From IMG/VR virus record IMGVR_UViG_3300032287_004273, positions 15,359 to 79,358 of that record: a DNA stretch of 64,000 nt. One strand, 5' to 3'. Below the pieces are notes generated by a model. The model was given only the letters and a program-made list of their open reading frames with translations. It was not told where the DNA came from and made no database searches. Below are positions 36,488 to 47,546 of the stretch, one piece after another. The translations under genes were made by a program, and so were the position numbers. This DNA comes from a virus. The stretch's first letter is position 1. The number at the start of each line of letters is the position of its first letter.

Positions 36488-36575
36488 TCAAGAGTAAAAA
36501 TTAACAAAAATTATTTCAAATAAGACGAAATAAGTAGGCAAAAACTGCCAGGGGGAGCCCTGGTCACAAAAGACT

Positions 36576-36607
36576 ACACCCCACCCTTTCGGGTGAGGTG
36601 TTTTTTA
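36576..36607. terminator. terminator at the convergence of rightward and leftward units
   Basis: ACACCCCACCC-TTTC-GGGTGAGGTGT plus T run. Confidence 0.7.
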
Positions 36608-36670
36608 TTGGGGGGAAATTTATTTACTTTTTATTTTTGGTTGCGAGTGCGAAGACAACTAGTAGAACAA

Positions 36671-37258
36671 TTAAGATTTGCATTTGCTGGGGGCATATGG
36701 TTCTCCTGTTTCTAGGTTGATGAGGACAACGTCGTCGATGTGACCTCCGTCTTTTACGTTCTTAGCATAGACATCGATCATAAGACTTGGTGTTATATGT
36801 CTTGCGTATACATAGATCTTGCCACTCGCAACGTTTCTGATTGCCCACTTGGCACCTTTTGGTACGCAGAGCCACTTGCTACTGCTATAGCATCTCTCTA
36901 CTGGTATTCCCAGCTTCCTCATCCAAGACTTCCAAGTAGGCCCATGTCCCCAACCCTTGTTGACTTCCCAATCTAAAGCGTGTGCCCATTCGTGTAGAAT
37001 AGTTTCTTTTGCTTTTTGTAAGAAGTTCGGGCTGTTCTTGTTTATGTGTATTATGTGGGTGGAAAGCTCGATTCGTTTTGTCTTTCCATTATTAGATCTC
37101 CAAGCCCTGCCCATTACAGTCCTCAGTCTTTTGTTCCATTTGATTTCCCACCCTTCTAGGATGGGATACTGGAGCTTGATCTGAGCAGAGATTTCTTTGA
37201 ACAATGTATTTACTTCGGCAATCATATTAGTCATCGTCTCTAAATTATTCTTCGTCAA
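36671..37258 (-). CDS. SprT-like zinc metalloprotease
   Basis: WNKRLRTVMGRA, IELS, TILHEWAH, GHGPTWK. Confidence 0.85.
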   Translation of the reverse strand: MTKNNLETMTNMIAEVNTLFKEISAQIKLQYPILEGWEIKWNKRLRTVMGRAWRSNNGKTKRIELSTHIIHINKNSPNFLQKAKETILHEWAHALDWEVNKGWGHGPTWKSWMRKLGIPVERCYSSSKWLCVPKGAKWAIRNVASGKIYVYARHITPSLMIDVYAKNVKDGGHIDDVVLINLETGEPYAPSKCKS

Positions 37259-37451
37259 ATTCTTTTTCTCCTAGTGGTTCAGAGTCAATCGAAAAGAAAA
37301 CTTCGTCTTTGTAAAGATAGTCTCCCTCACCACTAGCAATGTGAATGCCAGTTACATTGTGAAAGTTATCATATACTTCCACGATTACATGGGAGTCAAG
37401 TTGATCGGCAGTCATGCGACCTAAGTCTTTTATTAGTTGTCTGTATGTCAT
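37245..37451 (-). CDS. hypothetical protein
   Basis: MTYRQL start, overlaps the next gene. Confidence 0.6.
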   Translation of the reverse strand: MTYRQLIKDLGRMTADQLDSHVIVEVYDNFHNVTGIHIASGEGDYLYKDEVFFSIDSEPLGEKEFDEE

Positions 37452-37470
37452 ATTTTTTAGCAATTTAAAG

Positions 37471-37547
37471 TGGCGTACCCAGCAGGGTTCGAACCTGCGA
37501 CCAACGGATTAGAAATCCGTTGCTCTATCCAACTGAGCTATGGGTAC
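37471..37547 (-). tRNA. tRNA-Arg(TCT)
   Basis: GTACCCA/TGGGTAC acceptor, TTTCTAA loop, CCA. Confidence 0.92.
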
Positions 37548-37904
37548 TTAAAGACAAGGGTGGAAAGCAAGATCTACATCCTTGCGGTGATATTCTTCAG
37601 ATAGAATGCGCTTTGTCAAGACAATTTCCACCTTGCCAAATGGATAAACATATATCTCACCATAAGTGCCAGCGCCCATATCGAAATCTGGATAATGCTC
37701 CTGTAACAAATGTTCAATTTCATCTTGATAGATTGGAGCAACTTCTTTACTGGAAACGAGTTTGTCCCCAAGCGCAAAGTACACGCAGGAATCAAACCAA
37801 TGAGTACAGGAATCCTCAGAAGTCCAGTGATAGATTGCGTACTTTAGATCACGACTCTTTAGAACCTCAACAAGATCAAGCAATGTCTTTTCCATATGCG
37901 TCAC
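37548..37904 (-). CDS. hypothetical protein
   Basis: First gene of its cassette; TTGCCT/TATGAT promoter. Confidence 0.6.
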   Translation of the reverse strand: MTHMEKTLLDLVEVLKSRDLKYAIYHWTSEDSCTHWFDSCVYFALGDKLVSSKEVAPIYQDEIEHLLQEHYPDFDMGAGTYGEIYVYPFGKVEIVLTKRILSEEYHRKDVDLAFHPCL

Positions 37905-38024
37905 ATCATAAACAATCTTAGCGAGAAGGCAACATTTATTTCAAAAATATTTACGCACTTGTGCGTAATAACACTTGACAGGGAGCCAGGGCTACCCCTG
38001 GGGCGTAACCACCTCATTCTGAGG

Positions 38025-38110
38025 TGGTAGCTAGGGCGGGACTCGAACCCGCACGCCCTACTGGGCAACAGATTTTAAGTCTGTTGTGTCTGCCATTTCA
38101 CCACCTAGCC
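38025..38110 (-). tRNA. tRNA-Leu(TAA)
   Basis: CTTAAAA loop, long variable arm, CCA. Confidence 0.92.
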
Positions 38111-38125
38111 GAAAGAAAAAGAAAG

Positions 38126-38198
38126 TGGGGACGGAGGGATTTGAACCCCCAACCAAGCGATTATGAGTCGCCTGCTCTGACCATTGAGCTACATCCCC
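38126..38198 (-). tRNA. tRNA(CAT), probably Ile2 (lysidine)
   Basis: Anticodon arm GGCGACTCATAATCGCT as in bacterial Ile2 tRNAs; fully paired acceptor. Confidence 0.85.
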
Positions 38199-38204
38199 GA
38201 AAGC

Positions 38205-38591
38205 TTACAATTCAAAAGCGAGAATGTTATCTGATGGAAGAAAGTTCAACTCTGCCTCACCTTCATATAAGGAATATCCTAGCACAGTCAAAGCAAAGAC
38301 GCAAGCATTATCGTAAGAAAAATCTCGAAAGGAATGGATCTCTACACCATCATCTTTGTCCACAATGTAGTAGTCTTTAATCTCATCAGATAAAGATTTA
38401 GGTTCTACACGAAAGCCCAAATGTGTAAGGGCTTGTTCTTCAGGTGTTTGCGGTGATTCTTTATCAATCATTACTTGTTCCTGAAAGGAAGTGTCATCTT
38501 CGATTAGTGTATACGGTTGGTGCATATTTATTTCTTTAACATTAAGCATATTACGACGAGGGTTACGATTAGAGCATCCATAATTAGACAT
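38205..38591 (-). CDS. hypothetical protein
   Basis: Overlaps the upstream stop. Confidence 0.6.
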   Translation of the reverse strand: MSNYGCSNRNPRRNMLNVKEINMHQPYTLIEDDTSFQEQVMIDKESPQTPEEQALTHLGFRVEPKSLSDEIKDYYIVDKDDGVEIHSFRDFSYDNACVFALTVLGYSLYEGEAELNFLPSDNILAFEL

Positions 38592-39279
38592 GAATTACAA
38601 AGCCCGAATTATCTTTTTTTGCTGGCCCCTTGGCACGCAGTCCCACGATTGTATTCTTTGGATCAAGGAAGCGAAGATCGTTTTCATCTCCGTCAATGAC
38701 TTTGAAACCTTCGTGTTCTGTTGGCAAGGGTTGATCTTTTTTAGTGGAGAAAACAAAGGCTGAATTGTTTCCTTTTGCTAAAGCTGCGAAAGCTTTAACT
38801 TGAGACACTTTAGTCTCTGCGCGTGAGAAAGTCAAGTGGTAATTTGAAATTGTCAAGTCCAAACGATCAAACAATTTTGTGTAATCATAGAACTGCACAC
38901 CAGAAAAATGCTGGAAAATGTTTTTGCCCTTGTGGATAATGTCTTCCCATCTGACATCGGAAGTTAAGTTGAGACGAAACACAGCTTGCAAACTTTTCTT
39001 TGCGGCTGATTTGATTCCTGTCTCAATTTCTTTGATTAAATTATCCATGAACAAAGCTTGTTCCTCAAAGAAGCTTTTTGTTTTTTCGATTCGCTGTGGC
39101 TGAACCATGACACCCATGCCAGCCAAGTTAAGGCATGAATCTGTGCAACCTTTAGATCTGCCTTGGCAAACTTCATAACCGCTAATGTTAGCGGGTGCAA
39201 AGTGAATGCCAAAGGTTTCGTATCCGAAGGATCTGCCCTTGAGCGTTTTGTAATTAGCAACGGTGAGTAATTTTTGCAT
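38584..39279 (-). CDS. GP88-like (CxxxxxxCxxxC) phage protein
   Basis: VCQGRSKGCTDSCL, RLNLTSD, FYDYTK, YHLTFS, DGDENDLRFLD. Confidence 0.65.
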   Translation of the reverse strand: MQKLLTVANYKTLKGRSFGYETFGIHFAPANISGYEVCQGRSKGCTDSCLNLAGMGVMVQPQRIEKTKSFFEEQALFMDNLIKEIETGIKSAAKKSLQAVFRLNLTSDVRWEDIIHKGKNIFQHFSGVQFYDYTKLFDRLDLTISNYHLTFSRAETKVSQVKAFAALAKGNNSAFVFSTKKDQPLPTEHEGFKVIDGDENDLRFLDPKNTIVGLRAKGPAKKDNSGFVIHV

Positions 39280-39380
39280 GGGTGAAGAATATCATGAGCA
39301 AGGGGTGGTGCAACAATTATTTCGCAAAATATTTACGCCTTTAGGCGTAATAGTTCTTGACATCCCAGCCAGGGCTACCC

Positions 39381-39577
39381 CTGGCCCCCACCCGATGGGT
39401 GGGGGTCAGCTTCCCGATAGCGTTGGTTGTCAGTTAAACAAACCAAAAAAAGCAAACCAACAATCTATTTGGAAGAGAAAGTAACTGGCCCCCACCCCAC
39501 TGGGTGGGGGTCAGCTTCCCGATAGTTTAGCTCGCTGAGATCCCCTCAGAAAACGCGAGCATCATCTATTTGGAAGA
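39381..39577 (-). ncRNA. two tandem ~100-nt units with constant scaffold and variable insert (candidate sRNAs)
   Basis: Repeats at 39381-39420/39485-39525 and 39463-39476/39564-39577; the scaffold halves base-pair. Confidence 0.45.
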
Positions 39578-40465
39578 ATGGAATTGTCCAAGATTCTGTC
39601 AAGGTAGAACATTCCGAAGTGTGGTTGCTCCACCTTACCGTTCTTTGCTACTATGTAGAGAGTGACAGCTTCAGGTGGGCAATGGTTAGTTCCACCTTTT
39701 GATCCTTTCTTTACGCCAGTACGAACAGTGTAGGTGTTTGTTTCACCTTTCTTGTTATGGTACTTGATCGAAAAGAACTTTCCGTTTGTTGTTGCGATAA
39801 TGCGTTTGCCGATCATATGTGGTGCTGGTTCGAGTGTGTTATTATTCATATAATTATCGTGAAAGATCAACTTGATTGCCATCCTCATCTTCGTCGTCGA
39901 AGTCTTCGTCCTCGTCGTCCCAAACAACATCTGGTTCTGTGGTGTTCATTGCAATGGTAGCGAGCAGATGATCGTAGTCTCCGCTTTGCGCTTCTTTTAG
40001 AACCGCACGAACTTCTTCTTGTGACCAACCTTGGCGAAGCGCGTTGCTTCTCCATGTACCCATAATTGCAAATGCGTTGCCGTCGAGGCCGACCAGTTCC
40101 ATCTTAACTTTCTTGGTTTTTGTGTTTTGCATATCGCTTGTATTGTTTTTTGCTTGGTTGTACGACTCGCAACATTCTGTTGCCCCATCGTAAAGTTTTT
40201 TGATAGGTTACCCCATCGACAATCAGTTTTTGCTTTTTGGAGTCCATACTCTCAACATATCCTCATCCTTCATGATGTCAATCCCAAATCCCAATGTTTG
40301 GAAAGTTTTCTGCAAAGTGTATGCTTGCAACTCAAGAATCTTTTTCATCTCGTTTGATGTCATAGCTTCACCGACAGCTTCCTGCGTAGCCCTGTGGAAT
40401 GCGTAAAGCATTTCACAAAACTGATTTACCAATGGGGTCAACTCTTTGATGGCGTCTTTGTTCAT
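39562..40465 (-). CDS. cassette of three hypothetical genes (40223-40465, 39854-40132 with DGNAFAIMG motif and acidic tail, 39562-39849)
   Basis: TTGCGC-17-TATGAT leaderless promoter at 40499. Confidence 0.65.
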
Positions 40466-40606
40466 GTGGGTATCATATACAGAGCAACCGAATGCGCAAC
40501 ATTTATTTCAAAAATATTTACGTCCTTGGACGTAATAGTTATTGACAGCCCAGCCAGGGGTGGCCCTGGACCCCCGCCTTTCGGCGGGAGACCATTCGTA
40601 TGGAAA

Positions 40607-40912
40607 TTAATGTGCGACTACTTCTGCTTCGTCGATTTCTATGCAGAACTCTCCGCCGCCAAGGGAGAATTCAAACTTATTGCCTGTAAGGGAAACTTCT
40701 TGAGGAAGCCTGCGATCTGTTTTATGGTTAAGCAGAACGCTGTGATCCATCCCATCTTTCCACCTTTCGAGGTGAACATTGGTGGGAACGAAGTGAGTGA
40801 TGTTATGCCAGAGGATCAATCTTTCTTTCTTTTTGATTGCTCTCTTGACTCGCTCAACGTGAGCGTGTTTGACTTTGATCGTGATGTTGGTGTTTCCAAT
40901 GTTTGTTTGCAT
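40607..40912 (-). CDS. hypothetical single-gene cassette
   Basis: TTGCAC/TATGCT promoter then TCTCAC-ATG. Confidence 0.65.
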   Translation of the reverse strand: MQTNIGNTNITIKVKHAHVERVKRAIKKKERLILWHNITHFVPTNVHLERWKDGMDHSVLLNHKTDRRLPQEVSLTGNKFEFSLGGGEFCIEIDEAEVVAH

Positions 40913-41074
40913 GTGAGAAGCATAGCAAAAGCTCTCATGCGTGCAACAATTTTAATTAAAAAAAATTACGCACCTGTGCGCAATAGTTGTTGACAGAAAA
41001 GCCAGGGGTAGCCCTGGCCCCCCGCATAGCGGGGGGTGGGTTGGGAGCGGTGTTACCCGCTCCCCCCGAAGGGC

Positions 41075-41845
41075 TTACGCTTCAGCGCCTGCAAGCTCTT
41101 CAACGTCAATCAGTTGGGGCTCAATGATTGATGCGTGACCCGCAATCGAATCGAAGATTGATTGCATGACCATCGTGCGAGCGGGGAGCTTGGTCAGGTC
41201 GGAGCCTTTCAGGTTCTCCGTCACAGAGTTGTACAGGTTCCACAAGGTGGGCGTGTTGAACTCAGGGTGACGGGGAGCCTTGAACTCTTGCGTGACGGCG
41301 AACACATCGCGAGCGGGAAGCGCCTTAGCTTCAGCGAGTTGAACTGAAAGCTCGCACGCACGATCAAAACCGATTTCGGTGTTCTGATACCGATTGATTC
41401 GGGTTTCCATATCCGTCCAATGCGAGAGAAGGCGACCGATGCCCTCAGACAAAACGCGAGGAATGTCGCGAATGATGTTGACGGTGTGACGGCGAGCCAG
41501 CTTCACATCGCTGGAAAAGCACAGGTTCTCGCATACGATCATGCGGTTGCCAATGCACATACTAGCAGCGAATGACTTGTCGTGCGCGTTACGCAATCCC
41601 AAGACGAGCTTGCGCGAATCGCTATTGATATCGGGGCCAGTGATCTGGAACCCGCCGAAGTACCGTTGACCGAAACGGCCCAGAGCGTGCTTTTCTTCGG
41701 TGACGCTGTAGCCTGCGCGATCCAAAGCGGAAAGCGTTTCTTCCACAAGGAAGGAATGGCTGATTGGGGTGAAGCTGTCCGTGCCATCTGGGGTACGGAC
41801 GGTTGCGAGTTCTTCACGGGAGACGAGGTTCTTTGCAATGATCAT
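41075..41845 (-). CDS. DUF932-family protein
   Basis: PISH, LRNAHDKSFA, RMIVCENLCF, RRHT, TLWNLYNSVTE. Confidence 0.8.
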   Translation of the reverse strand: MIIAKNLVSREELATVRTPDGTDSFTPISHSFLVEETLSALDRAGYSVTEEKHALGRFGQRYFGGFQITGPDINSDSRKLVLGLRNAHDKSFAASMCIGNRMIVCENLCFSSDVKLARRHTVNIIRDIPRVLSEGIGRLLSHWTDMETRINRYQNTEIGFDRACELSVQLAEAKALPARDVFAVTQEFKAPRHPEFNTPTLWNLYNSVTENLKGSDLTKLPARTMVMQSIFDSIAGHASIIEPQLIDVEELAGAEA

Positions 41846-42066
41846 ATGTTTGATTAGGTTTAATGGTTAACTGACAGAAGAGAGTCTCTCACAGCTTGGG
41901 TTTTAGTGCAACGGATTTTTTTGATTTTGAGCATTTATTTTCACCTCAGAAACCATGCCAAGCGCAAATATTTTTGCGCTTGAGCGTAATAGTCTTGACA
42001 GCCCCAGGCCAGGGGTAGCCCTGGACCCCGCCTTTCGGCGGGGTCAAGTGCCTGTGCGTGCCGCAC

Positions 42067-42932
42067 TTACGCCAGATGCGCGATCTTAGCCTCCACAAGG
42101 CGAAGGCGCTCGCGTGCTTCGCGCACATGCGCGAGAGCGAAGTCGGCCACGCCGTTAAGGAGTTCTATGTCGGCCTCTGTGGTGAGACGAGCGACGTTGA
42201 TGTCGCGGACGCACTCGCGTAACACGCGAAGGCTCGCGGTCATGAGTGCTGCGGAGGAGGCGGGTTGTGGTGTGTTTAGTGTCATATTAGGTGTAGCAGA
42301 CAGGGTGGATATCATCCCTTAGTCCATTCCATTTTCTGTTCATCATAATGGAATGGGTGTGCATAACTCTTTTGAGCCTTTGCTTGGATTCTGTCTTGAC
42401 TTTCTTCAACTTGGAAAGTTCCATTTGCAGATAGGTAATCTCATCAATGCTGAGACTTTTTGCGGCTTCAATGATTTGTTTTTTATTCATATTAATTTAA
42501 TGCTTTGATAATGCTTGCGCTGGAGCCCCCTCTGCGAGAAGGAGAAACGCAGAGGGAGCTTGCGCATAGCGCAACAGGGGAAACAACAACCCTGTCCTAC
42601 CGAAAGACTCTTGTCAAATGATTATTGACACCGTTCTTGAAAAACTCATAGTCAACGCAGTCAACCGCATCCAACTTGTACCCACCGATATTCCATTCAA
42701 ACAAAACGTCTGGGCTGGATGGTACGCGCTTCCATGCGTAGATGGTGGCGACTGTATCATTGGGGAATCTTAAGCGCCATTCGATGTTAACTTTTTCGCT
42801 TTCATCGATTGGATTATTATGCTTGTCAGGCGCACCGAATACAGCAACCAATTGGTCGTATGTGCATGAGATGTAACCTTTGAGCGAGGTTCCGTTGATG
42901 AGTGGCGTTCTTCTAACTGCTGTAGTTGTCAT
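42067..42932 (-). CDS. cassette of three genes (42597-42932, 42287-42490, 42067-42285)
   Basis: TTGCAC/TATCTT promoter at 42967; 42597 has GTSLKG, KVNIEW, TIYAWK, WNIGG motifs. Confidence 0.65.
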
Positions 42933-43040
42933 GGATAGAAAGATAGCACAGGAAAGAGTGCGTGCAACTTATTTTTCAAAAATAATTACGCCCTTGGGCG
43001 TAATAGTGCTTGACAGATCCCCAGGGCTACCCCTGGGCGT

Positions 43041-43115
43041 TGGTGGACAGGATGAGACTCGAACTCATAACCAACGCCTTAAAAGGGCGCTGCTCTACCA
43101 TTGAGCTACCTGTCC
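43041..43115 (-). tRNA. tRNA-Lys(TTT)
   Basis: GGACAGG/CCTGTCC acceptor, CTTTTAA loop, CCA. Confidence 0.92.
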
Positions 43116-43183
43116 CTTTGTGCCAGAGCCTCCCCCGCACTCGCGGGGGAGGATGGATGACACAACACACCTAACCACAGAAA

Positions 43184-43972
43184 TTATCTTGCTGCTTCAA
43201 AGCAGTGAGCCGCATGGAGTTCCAGATGTTTGCGGATGTCTTTAATTTTTTGCTTGACCTCATCTCTTTGAGAGACTGCCATGTTCCAACTCTCATCGCC
43301 CTTTGGGTAGTAGTCTCGCTTGTGAAACTCAACCGCAAAAAACTTTTCAGAGAATTGTTCTAGCGCACGAAGCGCATCGAAGTACTGTCCACCTAGTGAT
43401 TTGCCATCGTTGCCATTCATGTGGATGAATGGAAAACAAACAGAAGGATTATCAAGCTGGACTTGTGATTGTGCTGTTTCGGAGATCATTGTTGCAAGTA
43501 TGTTTGGATTTTTTCTTTTAGTTCAATGAGGAAGTTTTCTTCCACGTTCAATTCGTATGAGAGCTTATCTCTTAAGTCTGCATCCGTCAAGCAATGTTTG
43601 CAGATTTCGAGGGCTTTGGTGATGTCTTCTGGTGTGAGCATGATATTAGTCCCAACGTTGTTCAATAAAATCTTTGACCCTCATTTCCTGTAAGACAAGA
43701 AATTTAAATTTTTGTTTTAGTTTTGAAGTGAGTTCAATTAGACCATCAGCATATATCTTCGCATCACACTTGTCAAGTTTAAAACGAAGATCATGACCGT
43801 CTTGACGAGAAAACAAAGAAAACGTATCTCGTATTGTTTCAACATTATCATCGTAATGATAGACTTCTGATCCAAATTCGCTTTGAAGTACGAATGCCCA
43901 AGATTCACAAAGGATGTCTAACAGGTCTGATGGACTGATTGGTTTTGATTCTGCTTTCAATGGGTTGTTCAT
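43184..43972 (-). CDS. cassette of three genes (43646-43972, 43486-43641, 43184-43489)
   Basis: TTGCGC promoter at 44007; middle 51-aa ORF not in track. Confidence 0.6.
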
Positions 43973-44108
43973 GTTTAGAACTCTATCATGGGTTTTGATT
44001 CGCGCAACATTTATTTATCAAAAAATTACGCACTTAGTGCGTAATAGTTCTTGACAGTCGAGCCAGGGGTAGCCCTGGCCCCAACCCTTTCAGGTTGAGG
44101 CGGTTATA

Positions 44109-44532
44109 CTACTCGACCTCCTCTTCTTCCTCTTCTTCCTCTTCGTCGAGCCCACCGAAGAGCGAGTCCCACTCTTCGGCGGTAATGCCCGACTTAATGA
44201 ACTCCCGCTCGTCGGGAGTTAAGTTAGGGAACGCATCTTGCAGCAGAGCGCCTGCTGCATAGAGGTCGAGCTGCGTTTGCGTGATGGGAAGATCAAGCGT
44301 GTTGACTTCCCCCGATACCCACGATGTGCGTGTGATGTTCATGTTTTTATTATTTGTTGCTGATTTGACGGACAGAAGAAACTGGTGGCCATTCGGGCGA
44401 TTCGCCGTTAAGAAGGGCGATTTGATATTCGCGCTCTTCGATCATGCACTCGATTGCGGTTTGCAACTGGCGCAAAGAGTCGAGGTCGCTGAAGTTTTGC
44501 TTAATCAATTCGATCAATGGGTTCGTTCTCAT
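44109..44532 (-). CDS. cassette of two genes (44350-44532; 44109-44342 with QDAFPNL.PDEREFI motif and poly-Glu tail)
   Basis: TTGTGC promoter at 44566. Confidence 0.65.
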
Positions 44533-44673
44533 GGAAGAATCATCTCACAATTCTGCTTTTGCACAACAAAAAAAGAGCAAAAAAATTTACGCTGCAAGCG
44601 TAATAGTTGTTGACAGCCAGCCCAGGGGTAGCCCTGGCCCCCAACCCATTCGGGTTGAGGGCTTTAGCTCTGT

Positions 44674-45155
44674 CTACTTGGCCAAGTCAAAGAATGGGCC
44701 ACTGAACTGGATTTGCCGTTCGTGCGCAAGTGCTTGCGCCCGTTCACGTTCCTCCTGATCAGCCACCTGCTGATTGAGGATATGCGCCTCTTGCAACATT
44801 GCGCTGCACTCATGCGCAAGCATGAAAAGCAATGTGTGTTGCTCGCAAGTGAGCGCGAGTGGGTCGAGCCCCGCAATCATTTTGCGGGACTCGATGAGGA
44901 CTGCGTTTTGCATAAGTTGAAGTGCGTCTTGCATAGGATGTATTATTCGCGTTCTTGGAGTTGTTTGATTCTGCCTGCAATATGTTCTTTGGCCTCTGGC
45001 ACAAAAGTTGCCATACCTATCAAAAAACCTTCGAGGTGGCCAACGATGCACGCATCGACAAGTTTCTCGCCATGCCTTTTCGCGATGTCCGCCTTGGTAG
45101 CGGCCATGAAGGTTTGCATAATCTGAACTGCGTCTGTGTAGTTGTTTCTTTCCAT
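44674..45155 (-). CDS. cassette of two genes (44943-45155, 44674-44934)
   Basis: Starts reassigned to ATGs downstream of the promoter at 45189. Confidence 0.6.
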
Positions 45156-45318
45156 GCCCAAACAATAGCATAAAAAGAAAGGGCTACAATACTCTTTTTT
45201 CATGCCAAGCGTGAAAAAAAGTTCATAAAAATTTTCACTTAATAGCGTAATAGTTCTTGACACCCAGCCCAGGGGTAGCCCTGGCTCCCAACCCTTTCGG
45301 GTTGAGGGGTTTACGGGT

Positions 45319-45576
45319 TTAGTTGTATGCCTTGAGCGGCCCTTGGCCCTCGCACTCAATGCGATGGCGCTCAGTCAAGCGCTCAACCGTTTCAATCGTG
45401 TGCCGCAAAGAGGCTTGGAACTTTGGGTCGCCTTCAAAATCAAACTGCAAGTCGCGCAATGCGTGCTCAAGCATCATGGCCTGAATCGTGGTGCGCGTCG
45501 AGAGCTTGTTGCGTGGGTTCACGCTAGAGTATGCGTGAATTTTGCTGATCAGATCAGAGACTTTGATGTTTTCCAT
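45319..45576 (-). CDS. hypothetical single-gene cassette
   Basis: TTGCGC/TATTGT promoter. Confidence 0.6.
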   Translation of the reverse strand: MENIKVSDLISKIHAYSSVNPRNKLSTRTTIQAMMLEHALRDLQFDFEGDPKFQASLRHTIETVERLTERHRIECEGQGPLKAYN

Positions 45577-45742
45577 GCTCAGACAATAGCAGAAAACAAA
45601 ATGTGCGCAACACTCTTTTTTCATGCCAAACTTCAAAAAAAGTTTACAAAAATTTTCACCCTATTTCATAATAGTTCTTGACGCCCAGTCCAGGGGTAGC
45701 CCTGGACCCCAACCCTTTCGGGTTGAGGTGTTTGCGCTTATG

Positions 45743-45985
45743 CTATTCTTCCATCATGCACTCGATGGCCGCTTTAATCTTTGCTAGTGAATCTGGGTCA
45801 TTATATCCTTGACGGATTTGCTGAATGATTCCTTCGCATGATTGCGTATTCTCGACGAACGTGCATAACTCCTTGAAGTCTGGGTCGCTTGGAAGCGACA
45901 GCGCCCAATTCAGACTCTGCTGAATTGCGCGAAGCGCGTTTAGATCCCTGTCTTCGTAAGTGTCGGTGGTAGGATAGTCGTACAT
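45743..45985 (-). CDS. hypothetical single-gene cassette
   Basis: TTGAAC/TATGAT promoter. Confidence 0.6.
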   Translation of the reverse strand: MYDYPTTDTYEDRDLNALRAIQQSLNWALSLPSDPDFKELCTFVENTQSCEGIIQQIRQGYNDPDSLAKIKAAIECMMEE

Positions 45986-46118
45986 AACTGAGAGAATCAT
46001 ATACAAGAAAGTGTGCGGTTCAACATAAAAATTTTGCTTTTGATGCTTAATAGTTCTTGACAGCGAGTCCAGGGGTAGCCCTGGCGGCTTGTCAAGTATT
46101 TTCTTTTGTTTTTCTCAC

Positions 46119-46146
46119 AAAAAAAGCCGCCCGAAGGCGGCTTTTT
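46119..46146. terminator. bidirectional terminator, same stem-loop repeated at 46639-46668
   Basis: A-tract GCCGCC-CGAA-GGCGGC T-tract (UUCG loop on the - strand). Confidence 0.85.
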
Positions 46147-46161
46147 GTGCTTGACGCGATT

Positions 46162-46479
46162 TTAGAAATCGCCCCCTTCGCACTCGTTCATCGACTCCCA
46201 ATGGGAGTCGAGGAAACTGTCCTCCCCACCGCCGTAGTCCTCATCCGTCCCCCACCCAGCGGACGCGAGCGCATCCGCATCCGCCTCGCCATCCGTCATG
46301 CCGTCCCCTTCGTCTTCGCCCAGATCCTGCGTGCAATCGTCCCCCTCCGCCTCGATCTGCTCCGAAGGATCGTAGTACTCCCCAATCGAGGGGCAGCACC
46401 CGCAGCAAGGCGCGTCCTCGCAGGGGAACTGCGCGTGCGTGTTTTCGTCGTCTGAACCTGAATTAGATGATGTAACCAT
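46162..46479 (-). CDS. extremely acidic Cys-cluster protein
   Basis: CEDAPCCGCC and DADALASAGWGTDEDYG motifs; no Lys/Arg. Confidence 0.7.
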   Translation of the reverse strand: MVTSSNSGSDDENTHAQFPCEDAPCCGCCPSIGEYYDPSEQIEAEGDDCTQDLGEDEGDGMTDGEADADALASAGWGTDEDYGGGEDSFLDSHWESMNECEGGDF

Positions 46480-46683
46480 GCGCCAAACATAACACATAAA
46501 AGCAAAAGGTCAAAAACTATTTGCGTGCCAAGCCTGAATTTAAATTCATAAAAATTTCTCACAAATAGCATAATAGTTGTTGACGCCCGACCCAGGGGTA
46601 GCCCTGGATCTTGTCAAGAGTTTTTTTTATTTTAGTGCAAAAAAAAAGCCGCCCGAAGGCGGCTTTTATGGCGGCTTTTATGC

Positions 46684-46938
46684 TTAGAGCGCCATTTGCC
46701 TTTCGTGCGCGAACGCTTGCGCCCATTCGCGAGCGTCCTCCTCCGCTTCCCCGAATTCGACGGAGGCGACATCCGCCTCCTGCGCGAAACGCGCCTCCTG
46801 CGCGTTCGCGCAGGCAAAGGACGCGATTTGATGGAGGAGCGCGATGTGCTCCTCCGTCAGGGATGCGCAATTGAGGTCGCGCACGCAGGCGCGAACGTGA
46901 ATGAGAACCGCTGTGAGATTGGACGATGTATTAACCAT
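46684..46938 (-). CDS. hypothetical single-gene cassette, paralog of 42067 and 44674
   Basis: VRACVRDLNCASLT, AQAFAHERQ. Confidence 0.65.
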   Translation of the reverse strand: MVNTSSNLTAVLIHVRACVRDLNCASLTEEHIALLHQIASFACANAQEARFAQEADVASVEFGEAEEDAREWAQAFAHERQMAL

Positions 46939-47069
46939 GCGGATACAGTACAAAAAGAATGCTGCGATTGGAAGGATTATTTGCAAAAAATTTCTCACTC
47001 TATGCACAATAGTTGTTGACAGGGTGGCCAGGGGTAGCCCTGGGGGCTGTCAAGCTTTTTTTGCTTTTT

Positions 47070-47279
47070 TTATGCTTGCACAACTTGCATGTTCTGTGGG
47101 CGCATTGAGTACTCCTTAGAGTACTCCTCATTCGTGAGTATCAGCGCGAAGCTGATATCGAAGCGACCACTTGCAAACAACTCAGCGCGAACGCTTTTTG
47201 CTTCGTCGCGAGTCTCGCAACGGATAGTTTCATGCCCGAAGTTTCCCGCCTTGTTTAAGCTAACGTATAATGTGAACAT
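47070..47279 (-). CDS. hypothetical single-gene cassette
   Basis: TTGCAA-17-TATAAT then ATG. Confidence 0.65.
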   Translation of the reverse strand: MFTLYVSLNKAGNFGHETIRCETRDEAKSVRAELFASGRFDISFALILTNEEYSKEYSMRPQNMQVVQA

Positions 47280-47546
47280 GCGATGATTATAGGGTAACAA
47301 ATGTGCGATTGCAAAAACTATTTTCGTGCCAAGTGTATTTTTAATTCTTAAAAAATTTCCTACAAATAGCTCAATAGTGCTTGACAGGGTGGCCAGGGGT
47401 CCCCCTGGAGTTTTTTGCCTAGTGAGTTTTTGCCGCCTCCTAGAGGTAGGCACTTCTTGCCTAGCGCCAGGGATCATGCACTTTCTGCATCATGCACTGG
47501 TCGCATGGCCATGCATGGGCCGCATCCCATGCATGGCGTGCATGGC

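Follow-up and report, generated by a model that had tools for sequence, protein, structure and literature searches.

In the early region of phage T7, 3'-terminal stabiliser hairpins and RNase III sites lie between the phage early genes. T4-type phages carry promoter-early stem-loop (PeSL) elements, which join a stem-loop with abundant G and C tracts to an AT-rich region and a sigma-70 promoter (Arbiol et al., 2010, PMC2839356; Comeau et al., 2014, PMC4122927). PeSLs border orphan genes, and insertions, deletions and replacements come about through them (PMC2839356; PMC4122927); crossovers are located inside the stem-loops, and terminator and promoter activity as well as mini-circle formation were established by reporter assays and inverse PCR (PMC2839356). 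Structured RNAs at the 3' ends of mRNAs may also be released as small RNAs (sRNAs) that share the mRNA terminator, as for MalH (PMC8081044) and for CisR, which acts on CTX-phi (PMC13250501). The locus described here, in a window of 64,000 nt (the whole stretch of viral DNA that was analysed), has features in common with each of these systems.

The repeated cassette module and its likeness to PeSL elements

About 15 leftward cassettes occupy 37.9-47.4 kb of the window on the - strand, within the stretch 36500-47450, and are separated by one repeated module; most of the cassette genes have no Pfam or PHROG function. The module consists, in order, of a GC stem-loop, the palindrome CCAGGG-N4-CCCTGG, the element TGTCAAGAACTATTACGC..GCGTAAT with a T-run, an A/T-rich stretch, and a promoter, which in most modules reads TTGCRC, 16-17 nt, and a TATGAT-like hexamer after the A/T-rich run. 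The GC stem-loops keep their pairing while their sequence varies (about 12 modules besides the two units described below).

In architecture and behaviour this module resembles a PeSL, in a phage that is not demonstrably T4-type. Both are repeated intergenic modules of about 100 nt, with a stable stem-loop bearing G and C tracts (here directly after the upstream gene) and an AT-rich region upstream of a sigma-70-like promoter within the module. In both, small orphan genes of a plastic region lie between the modules, which are the sites of insertions, deletions or replacements between close relatives: the array of the relative G001 (L130/L131; 56.8-66.3 kb of G001) counts 10 modules, with neither the DUF932 cassette nor one of its neighbours. 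Unlike a PeSL, the module here adds two conserved hairpins, CCAGGG-N4-CCCTGG and TTACGC..GCGTAA with its T-run. A further difference is that most cassette ATGs (38001-47400) stand about 6 nt past the -10 hexamer, with no Shine-Dalgarno sequence, which suggests that the early cassette mRNAs may be leaderless or nearly so. The gene-specific, stop-codon-spanning hairpin with a variable tip that is our main subject is likewise not a PeSL part.

The orientation of the 4-nt core of the CCAGGG palindrome was recorded on the - strand, in the window for the following copies:

37986-38001, - strand, CCAGGG palindrome
39369-39384, - strand, CCAGGG palindrome
43021-43036, - strand, CCAGGG palindrome

Across all fetched loci, which are related so that the counts are not phylogenetically independent, the core is GTAG/GTGG after 7 of 7 units, GTAG/ATAG after 6 of 8 tRNA-adjacent copies, and CTAC/CCAC/CCGC after most protein-gene terminators. 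This "flipped" GTAG/GTGG core groups the unit with RNA genes, a hint of possible stable-RNA behaviour.

Two tandem hairpin units at the end of the 84-aa gene

The units lie between a gene for an 84-aa protein and the next cassette, and comprise the following features:

39562-39816, - strand, 84-aa gene (phrog_2267), encoding a basic protein with no assigned function
39485-39577, - strand, unit 1, extra compared with all relatives
39564-39577, - strand, 5' half of unit 1, 14 nt, exact TCTTCCAAATAGAT
39526-39563, - strand, insert of unit 1, type B', 38 nt
39511-39525, - strand, 3' half of unit 1, 15 nt, exact CTATCGGGAAGCTGA
39485-39510, - strand, GC stem-loop of unit 1 and CCAG
39477-39484, - strand, inter-unit junction TTACTTTC, 8 nt, not in single-unit relatives
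39381-39476, - strand, unit 2, orthologous to the single unit of L115, L065, L066, L068/069 and L070
39463-39476, - strand, 5' half of unit 2, exact TCTTCCAAATAGAT, a non-coding copy
39421-39462, - strand, insert of unit 2, type A, 42 nt
39406-39420, - strand, 3' half of unit 2, exact CTATCGGGAAGCTGA
39381-39405, - strand, GC stem-loop of unit 2 and CCAG
39369-39384, - strand, CCAGGG-GTAG-CCCTGG palindrome of the repeated intergenic module, overlapping the CCAG of unit 2
39333-39350, - strand, TTACGCC/GGCGTAA hairpin followed by ATATTTT, the sole T-run terminator-like site in this intergenic region
39286-39313, - strand, predicted sigma-70-like promoter, TTGCAC-16 nt-TATTCT, ending 6 nt before the ATG of the next gene
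38584-39279, - strand, downstream cassette gene, GP88 family (PF17338, phrog_1617)

The original prediction described two - strand units in which constant, mutually pairing scaffold halves enclose a variable insert of about 40 nt with a stem of its own, and this description was borne out. The 14-nt 5' half and the 15-nt 3' half each occur exactly twice, and a 36-nt block (3' half plus stem-loop) is repeated at 89% identity with a spacing of 105 nt, a repeat far beyond chance; the inserts (38 and 42 nt) have no sequence relationship to one another. In the minimum free energy (MFE) folds, both units form the basal stems P1 (CUUCC/GGAAG) and P2 (AUAG/CUAU), an insert-specific stem, and a 9-bp GC hairpin, the arms of which are CCCCCACCC/GGGTGGGGG in both. 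The fold stability is z = -4.7 for each unit, with 0 of 200 shuffles as stable.

The final codons of the 84-aa gene (ILPNR) and its TGA stop (39562-39564) form the 5' strand of the basal stems of unit 1. Because the 5' half of unit 1 is thus the end of the gene, the unit is the 3' UTR of that gene. The C-terminal tail of the protein, LDNSILPNR, is found only in relatives that carry the scaffold. Only unit 2 precedes the module promoter, and unit 1 has the stem-loop alone. No U-run follows the GC stem-loop of either unit (the tails are GUUACUUUC and GGGUAGCCC), and for this reason termination at these stem-loops is unproven: of the intrinsic terminator, defined as a GC hairpin directly followed by a U-run, the units have the hairpin half.

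No Pfam family matches the 84-aa protein. Its structural model (pLDDT 73.5) is predicted to comprise a helix plus a beta-barrel, and the structural matches are weak (Foldseek best E = 0.19; VIA Z <= 5.0), with a match list made up mainly of Sm/LSm/Hfq/WYL proteins; the Atlas lead is WYL_2, present in 13% of one cluster. The apparent resemblance to Sm/LSm/Hfq/WYL folds is a weak lead rather than a finding.

Described RNA classes did not account for the units. Rfam 15 returned tRNAs only for the whole window at gathering thresholds, and nothing better than E = 0.8 for 39000-40000 with E up to 10. A CRISPR mini-array or Cas12a handle was rejected: the relatives have a single unit, the 5' half is unable to form the handle hairpin, and no CRISPR family matched. 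Also rejected were type III antitoxin repeats (there are no identical tandem units preceding a toxin gene), a hammerhead or other ribozyme (the conserved core is missing after CUGA, and there is no Rfam match), and stop-codon readthrough or a + strand ORF at 39263-39484 (insert length differences among relatives are not multiples of three).

The nested palindrome might act as DNA, forming a hairpin or cruciform, or serving as a recombination or protein-binding site at the cassette boundary, its variable centre then being a by-product of palindrome-centre turnover and inter-phage exchange. The nest of inverted repeats adjoins the CCAGGG-N4-CCCTGG palindrome, the + strand folds at least equally well (z = -7.8), close relatives differ both in whole cassettes and in this unit, and PeSL crossovers map inside stem-loops (PMC2839356). 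However, the G.U pairs in P3, and in the stem of the distant orthologue L057, fit the - (sense) strand and become A.C mismatches on the other; P1 draws on coding sequence and is part of a transcribed 3' UTR; and no recombinase or nuclease partner was identified. We therefore regard a role at the DNA level as distinctly unlikely.

Conservation of the scaffold and origin of the extra unit

Relatives were gathered from freshwater metagenome contigs by searches with the 84-aa protein and its homologues. The scaffold occurs once in each of seven contigs, L115 (the same as G001), L065, L066, L067, L068, L069 and L070, in all of them directly 3' of the 84-aa gene orthologue. Three forms of the insert were distinguished:

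Type A, in L115, L065 and L068/069, shortened in L066 and diverged in L070: GTTGGT...GTTTA(A)CTGAC...ACCAAC
Type B, in L067: includes CTGAGGGG
Type B', in unit 1 of the window: about 59% identity to the L067 insert

The expectation that the scaffold would be found with different inserts in other phages thus held in part: there are at least two unrelated insert types among the seven contigs, all at one orthologous locus in a narrow clade. An exact 15-mer scan of IMG/VR gave 53 matches, one of them a true relative and the remainder chance coding sequence; a degenerate 19-mer scan recovered the same single relative. A blastn search of 39300-39700 against the phage collection gave no match, and the covariance model R1 detected no further scaffold copies in G000, G001 or G002, its weaker matches being the shared stem-loop at another cassette. 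Beyond the clade, a different hairpin separates the stop codon from a canonical U-run terminator in the distant orthologues L057/L116 and L074; in L057 the 5' pairing partner of the conserved GGGAA strand is another sequence, located past the stop codon. No hairpin follows the 84-aa orthologue in L071, L073 or L079.

Between the window and L070, L067 and L068, identity at the third codon positions of the 84-aa gene is only 63-72%, whereas the 39 non-coding nucleotides of the 3' half and stem-loop are identical in L070, L068, L069, L065 and L115, and differ in L067 by one unpaired base. L066 has a compensatory change from C-G to G-C in P1. Because the 3' scaffold is invariant despite synonymous divergence, and P1 has changed in a compensatory manner, we infer that the hairpin is under selection; covariation support is thin, the L066 change being the sole covarying pair. 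An identical 28-nt stem-loop, TGACCCCCACCC..GGGTGGGGGCCAG, closes a different cassette in L065 (643-751), L070 (396-504) and L072 (646-710), where a different hairpin (GTTTAG..CTAAAC) spans the stop codon of that gene; part of the identity may therefore reflect homogenisation by recombination. The insert changes at a roughly neutral rate with its stem retained, and GTTTA(A)CTGAC is kept in all type-A inserts, including the otherwise diverged one of L070. This conservation is not predicted by a purely structural role.

Among the contigs examined, two units (B' then A) are present only in this phage. Both flanks in the window have their closest match in the type-A phage L115; unit 1 and the junction TTACTTTC are therefore a 105-nt addition. 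The record is a metagenome-assembled contig and the tandem appears in no other, so that an assembly artefact joining two strain alleles, or a functionless neutral scar, has to be weighed. The 8-nt junction is unique sequence that could not be produced by joining both alleles, which makes an artefact unlikely, and the single unit is conserved under constraint; we give artefact or scar very little credence.

The most probable explanation, though far from a certain one, is that the units are a cis-acting 3'-end module of the 84-aa mRNA, duplicated by recombination between two allelic forms. The position of the single unit, directly after the orthologous gene in every relative with the scaffold, and the difference of whole cassettes between G001 and the window both count in its favour. 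In such a module, P1 and P2 would form by pairing of the last codons and stop with the conserved non-coding GGGAAG/CUAU strand, and would carry an apical hairpin whose sequence is free to vary; the GC-rich stem-loop directly after would be the generic stem-loop of the PeSL-like module. Together, the two hairpins would define and protect the transcript 3' end in cis, and could insulate the cassette from the next promoter. The tandem would have arisen in an L115-like type-A genome by recombination or duplication between the B' and A forms of the module, probably by way of the repeated scaffold and stem-loop sequences, leaving an extra cassette without an ORF and the 8-nt junction. The unit is comparable to the hairpins of the T7 early region in being an imperfect hairpin, with internal loops and a length of about 20 bp, that lies between early-type genes and could form an mRNA 3' end. 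A difference is that each cassette here has its own promoter.

The unit represents a selected, clade-specific 3'-UTR RNA structure of uncultured freshwater phages, with a frozen base and a tip exchanged between alleles, set in a PeSL-like cassette array of a phage that is not demonstrably T4-type. The ORF-less extra cassette would exemplify how repeated terminator/promoter modules generate small structural novelties. The main use at present lies in annotation, where such hairpins should not be labelled as sRNA genes or CRISPR-like repeats; metatranscriptome analyses also gain a defined target.

Complementarity to the DUF932 leader and the possibility of action in trans

A regulatory target for the type-A insert had been proposed at another cassette of the array:

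41075-41845, - strand, DUF932 gene
41867-41876, - strand, proposed target TGTCAGTTAA, at the predicted 5' end of the DUF932 mRNA, 21 nt before the ATG at 41845

The 10-nt complementarity between insert 2 and this leader exists as described: TTAACTGACA (39428-39437, - strand) is complementary to TGTCAGTTAA on the same strand. The proposal that the units are programmable small RNAs regulating the DUF932 cassette was not upheld. A 10-mer complementary match arises in 11% of dinucleotide-shuffled insert pairs (promoter/leader regions of 14 cassettes; P ~0.11), and a lack of significance against shuffled controls is what the original prediction had named as speaking against it. Against - strand RNA of the whole window, insert 2 by itself gives 15 complementary ten-mer matches, most of which fall on A-runs. 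When 204 candidate starts are ordered by duplex energy, that of DUF932 comes 21st, and pairing is predicted for most of the "seed", 8 of its 10 bases having an unpaired probability of 0.05-0.28. When G.U pairs are allowed, the test does not discriminate, because the U/G-rich inserts match many A-rich promoter regions. Nor do motif and target occur together: G001 retains TTAACTGAC, yet DUF932 homologues are absent from its 85.7 kb, which include the complete cassette array, and G002, L132, L133 and L073 have DUF932 with no type-A unit nearby. Over 59 distinct leaders and all type-A variants, DUF932 leaders are not consistently the top partners of the inserts. The complementarity is judged to be coincidental. 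One oddity is that the leader start GTYAGTT(C)AAAC is conserved in DUF932 relatives, 6-7 nt after the -10 box (L132, L133, L134, L073, G002), and could form 11-13 bp with the type-A motif, one of them G.U; a small probability therefore stays on an action in trans.

In its general form, an action in trans would mean that stable sRNAs arise from the units, by release from the 3' UTR or by transcription at a weak internal promoter, and act by base pairing through the apical insert or by protein binding, with the upstream-encoded, possibly Sm-like protein as one candidate partner. No convincing promoter of their own was found for the units; the sole - strand candidate, TGGACA-18-GATGAT at 39590-39561, is weak, lies within coding sequence and overlaps the end of the 84-aa gene, and would, if active, initiate RNA inside insert 1. 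This promoter-like sequence is in keeping with such a release, as are the constant scaffold with swappable inserts, the motif conserved in type-A inserts together with its Watson-Crick match to a leader start that homologues keep, the palindrome core common to unit and tRNA genes, and the Sm/LSm/Hfq/WYL folds as best structural matches of the 84-aa protein, weak as these matches are. sRNAs derived from 3' UTRs and acting on phage genes are known (PMC13250501), and the units share with MalH- and CisR-type sRNAs the 3' UTR position, a structured form ending in the terminal stem-loop of the mRNA, and a short conserved motif in a variable region. Unlike those sRNAs, the units lack a U-tail, a significant target and co-occurrence with the proposed target. 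The chance frequency of the 10-mer, the rank of the DUF932 leader and the mostly paired state of the motif also weigh against an action in trans, as do the restriction of the scaffold to one locus and the more distant homologues of the 84-aa gene that are without any hairpin. On balance, we consider release as trans-acting sRNAs unlikely; if true, it would make the unit a naturally modular phage small RNA.

In a more specific version, the RNA released from the 3' UTR would be modular and would expose the insert motif as a single strand, so that in type A GUUUAACUGAC pairs with the conserved 5' end, GUYAGUUAAAC, of DUF932-cassette mRNAs. The mRNAs targeted might belong to the phage itself or to co-infecting relatives, perhaps with help from the adjacent Sm-like 84-aa protein, and a phage with two units would carry two specificities; we hold this version to be very unlikely.

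The DUF932 cassettes have several features of their own. The region from promoter to ATG is unusually long (41846-41990 in the window; also in L132, L133, L134 and L073), and an element TTGGCATGG..TGA, which also occurs in some other cassettes, lies upstream at the DUF932 leaders. At the other end of the cassette in the window (41020-41075), an extra hairpin, GGGAGCGG..CCGCTCCC, is present between the stop codon and the GC stem-loop.
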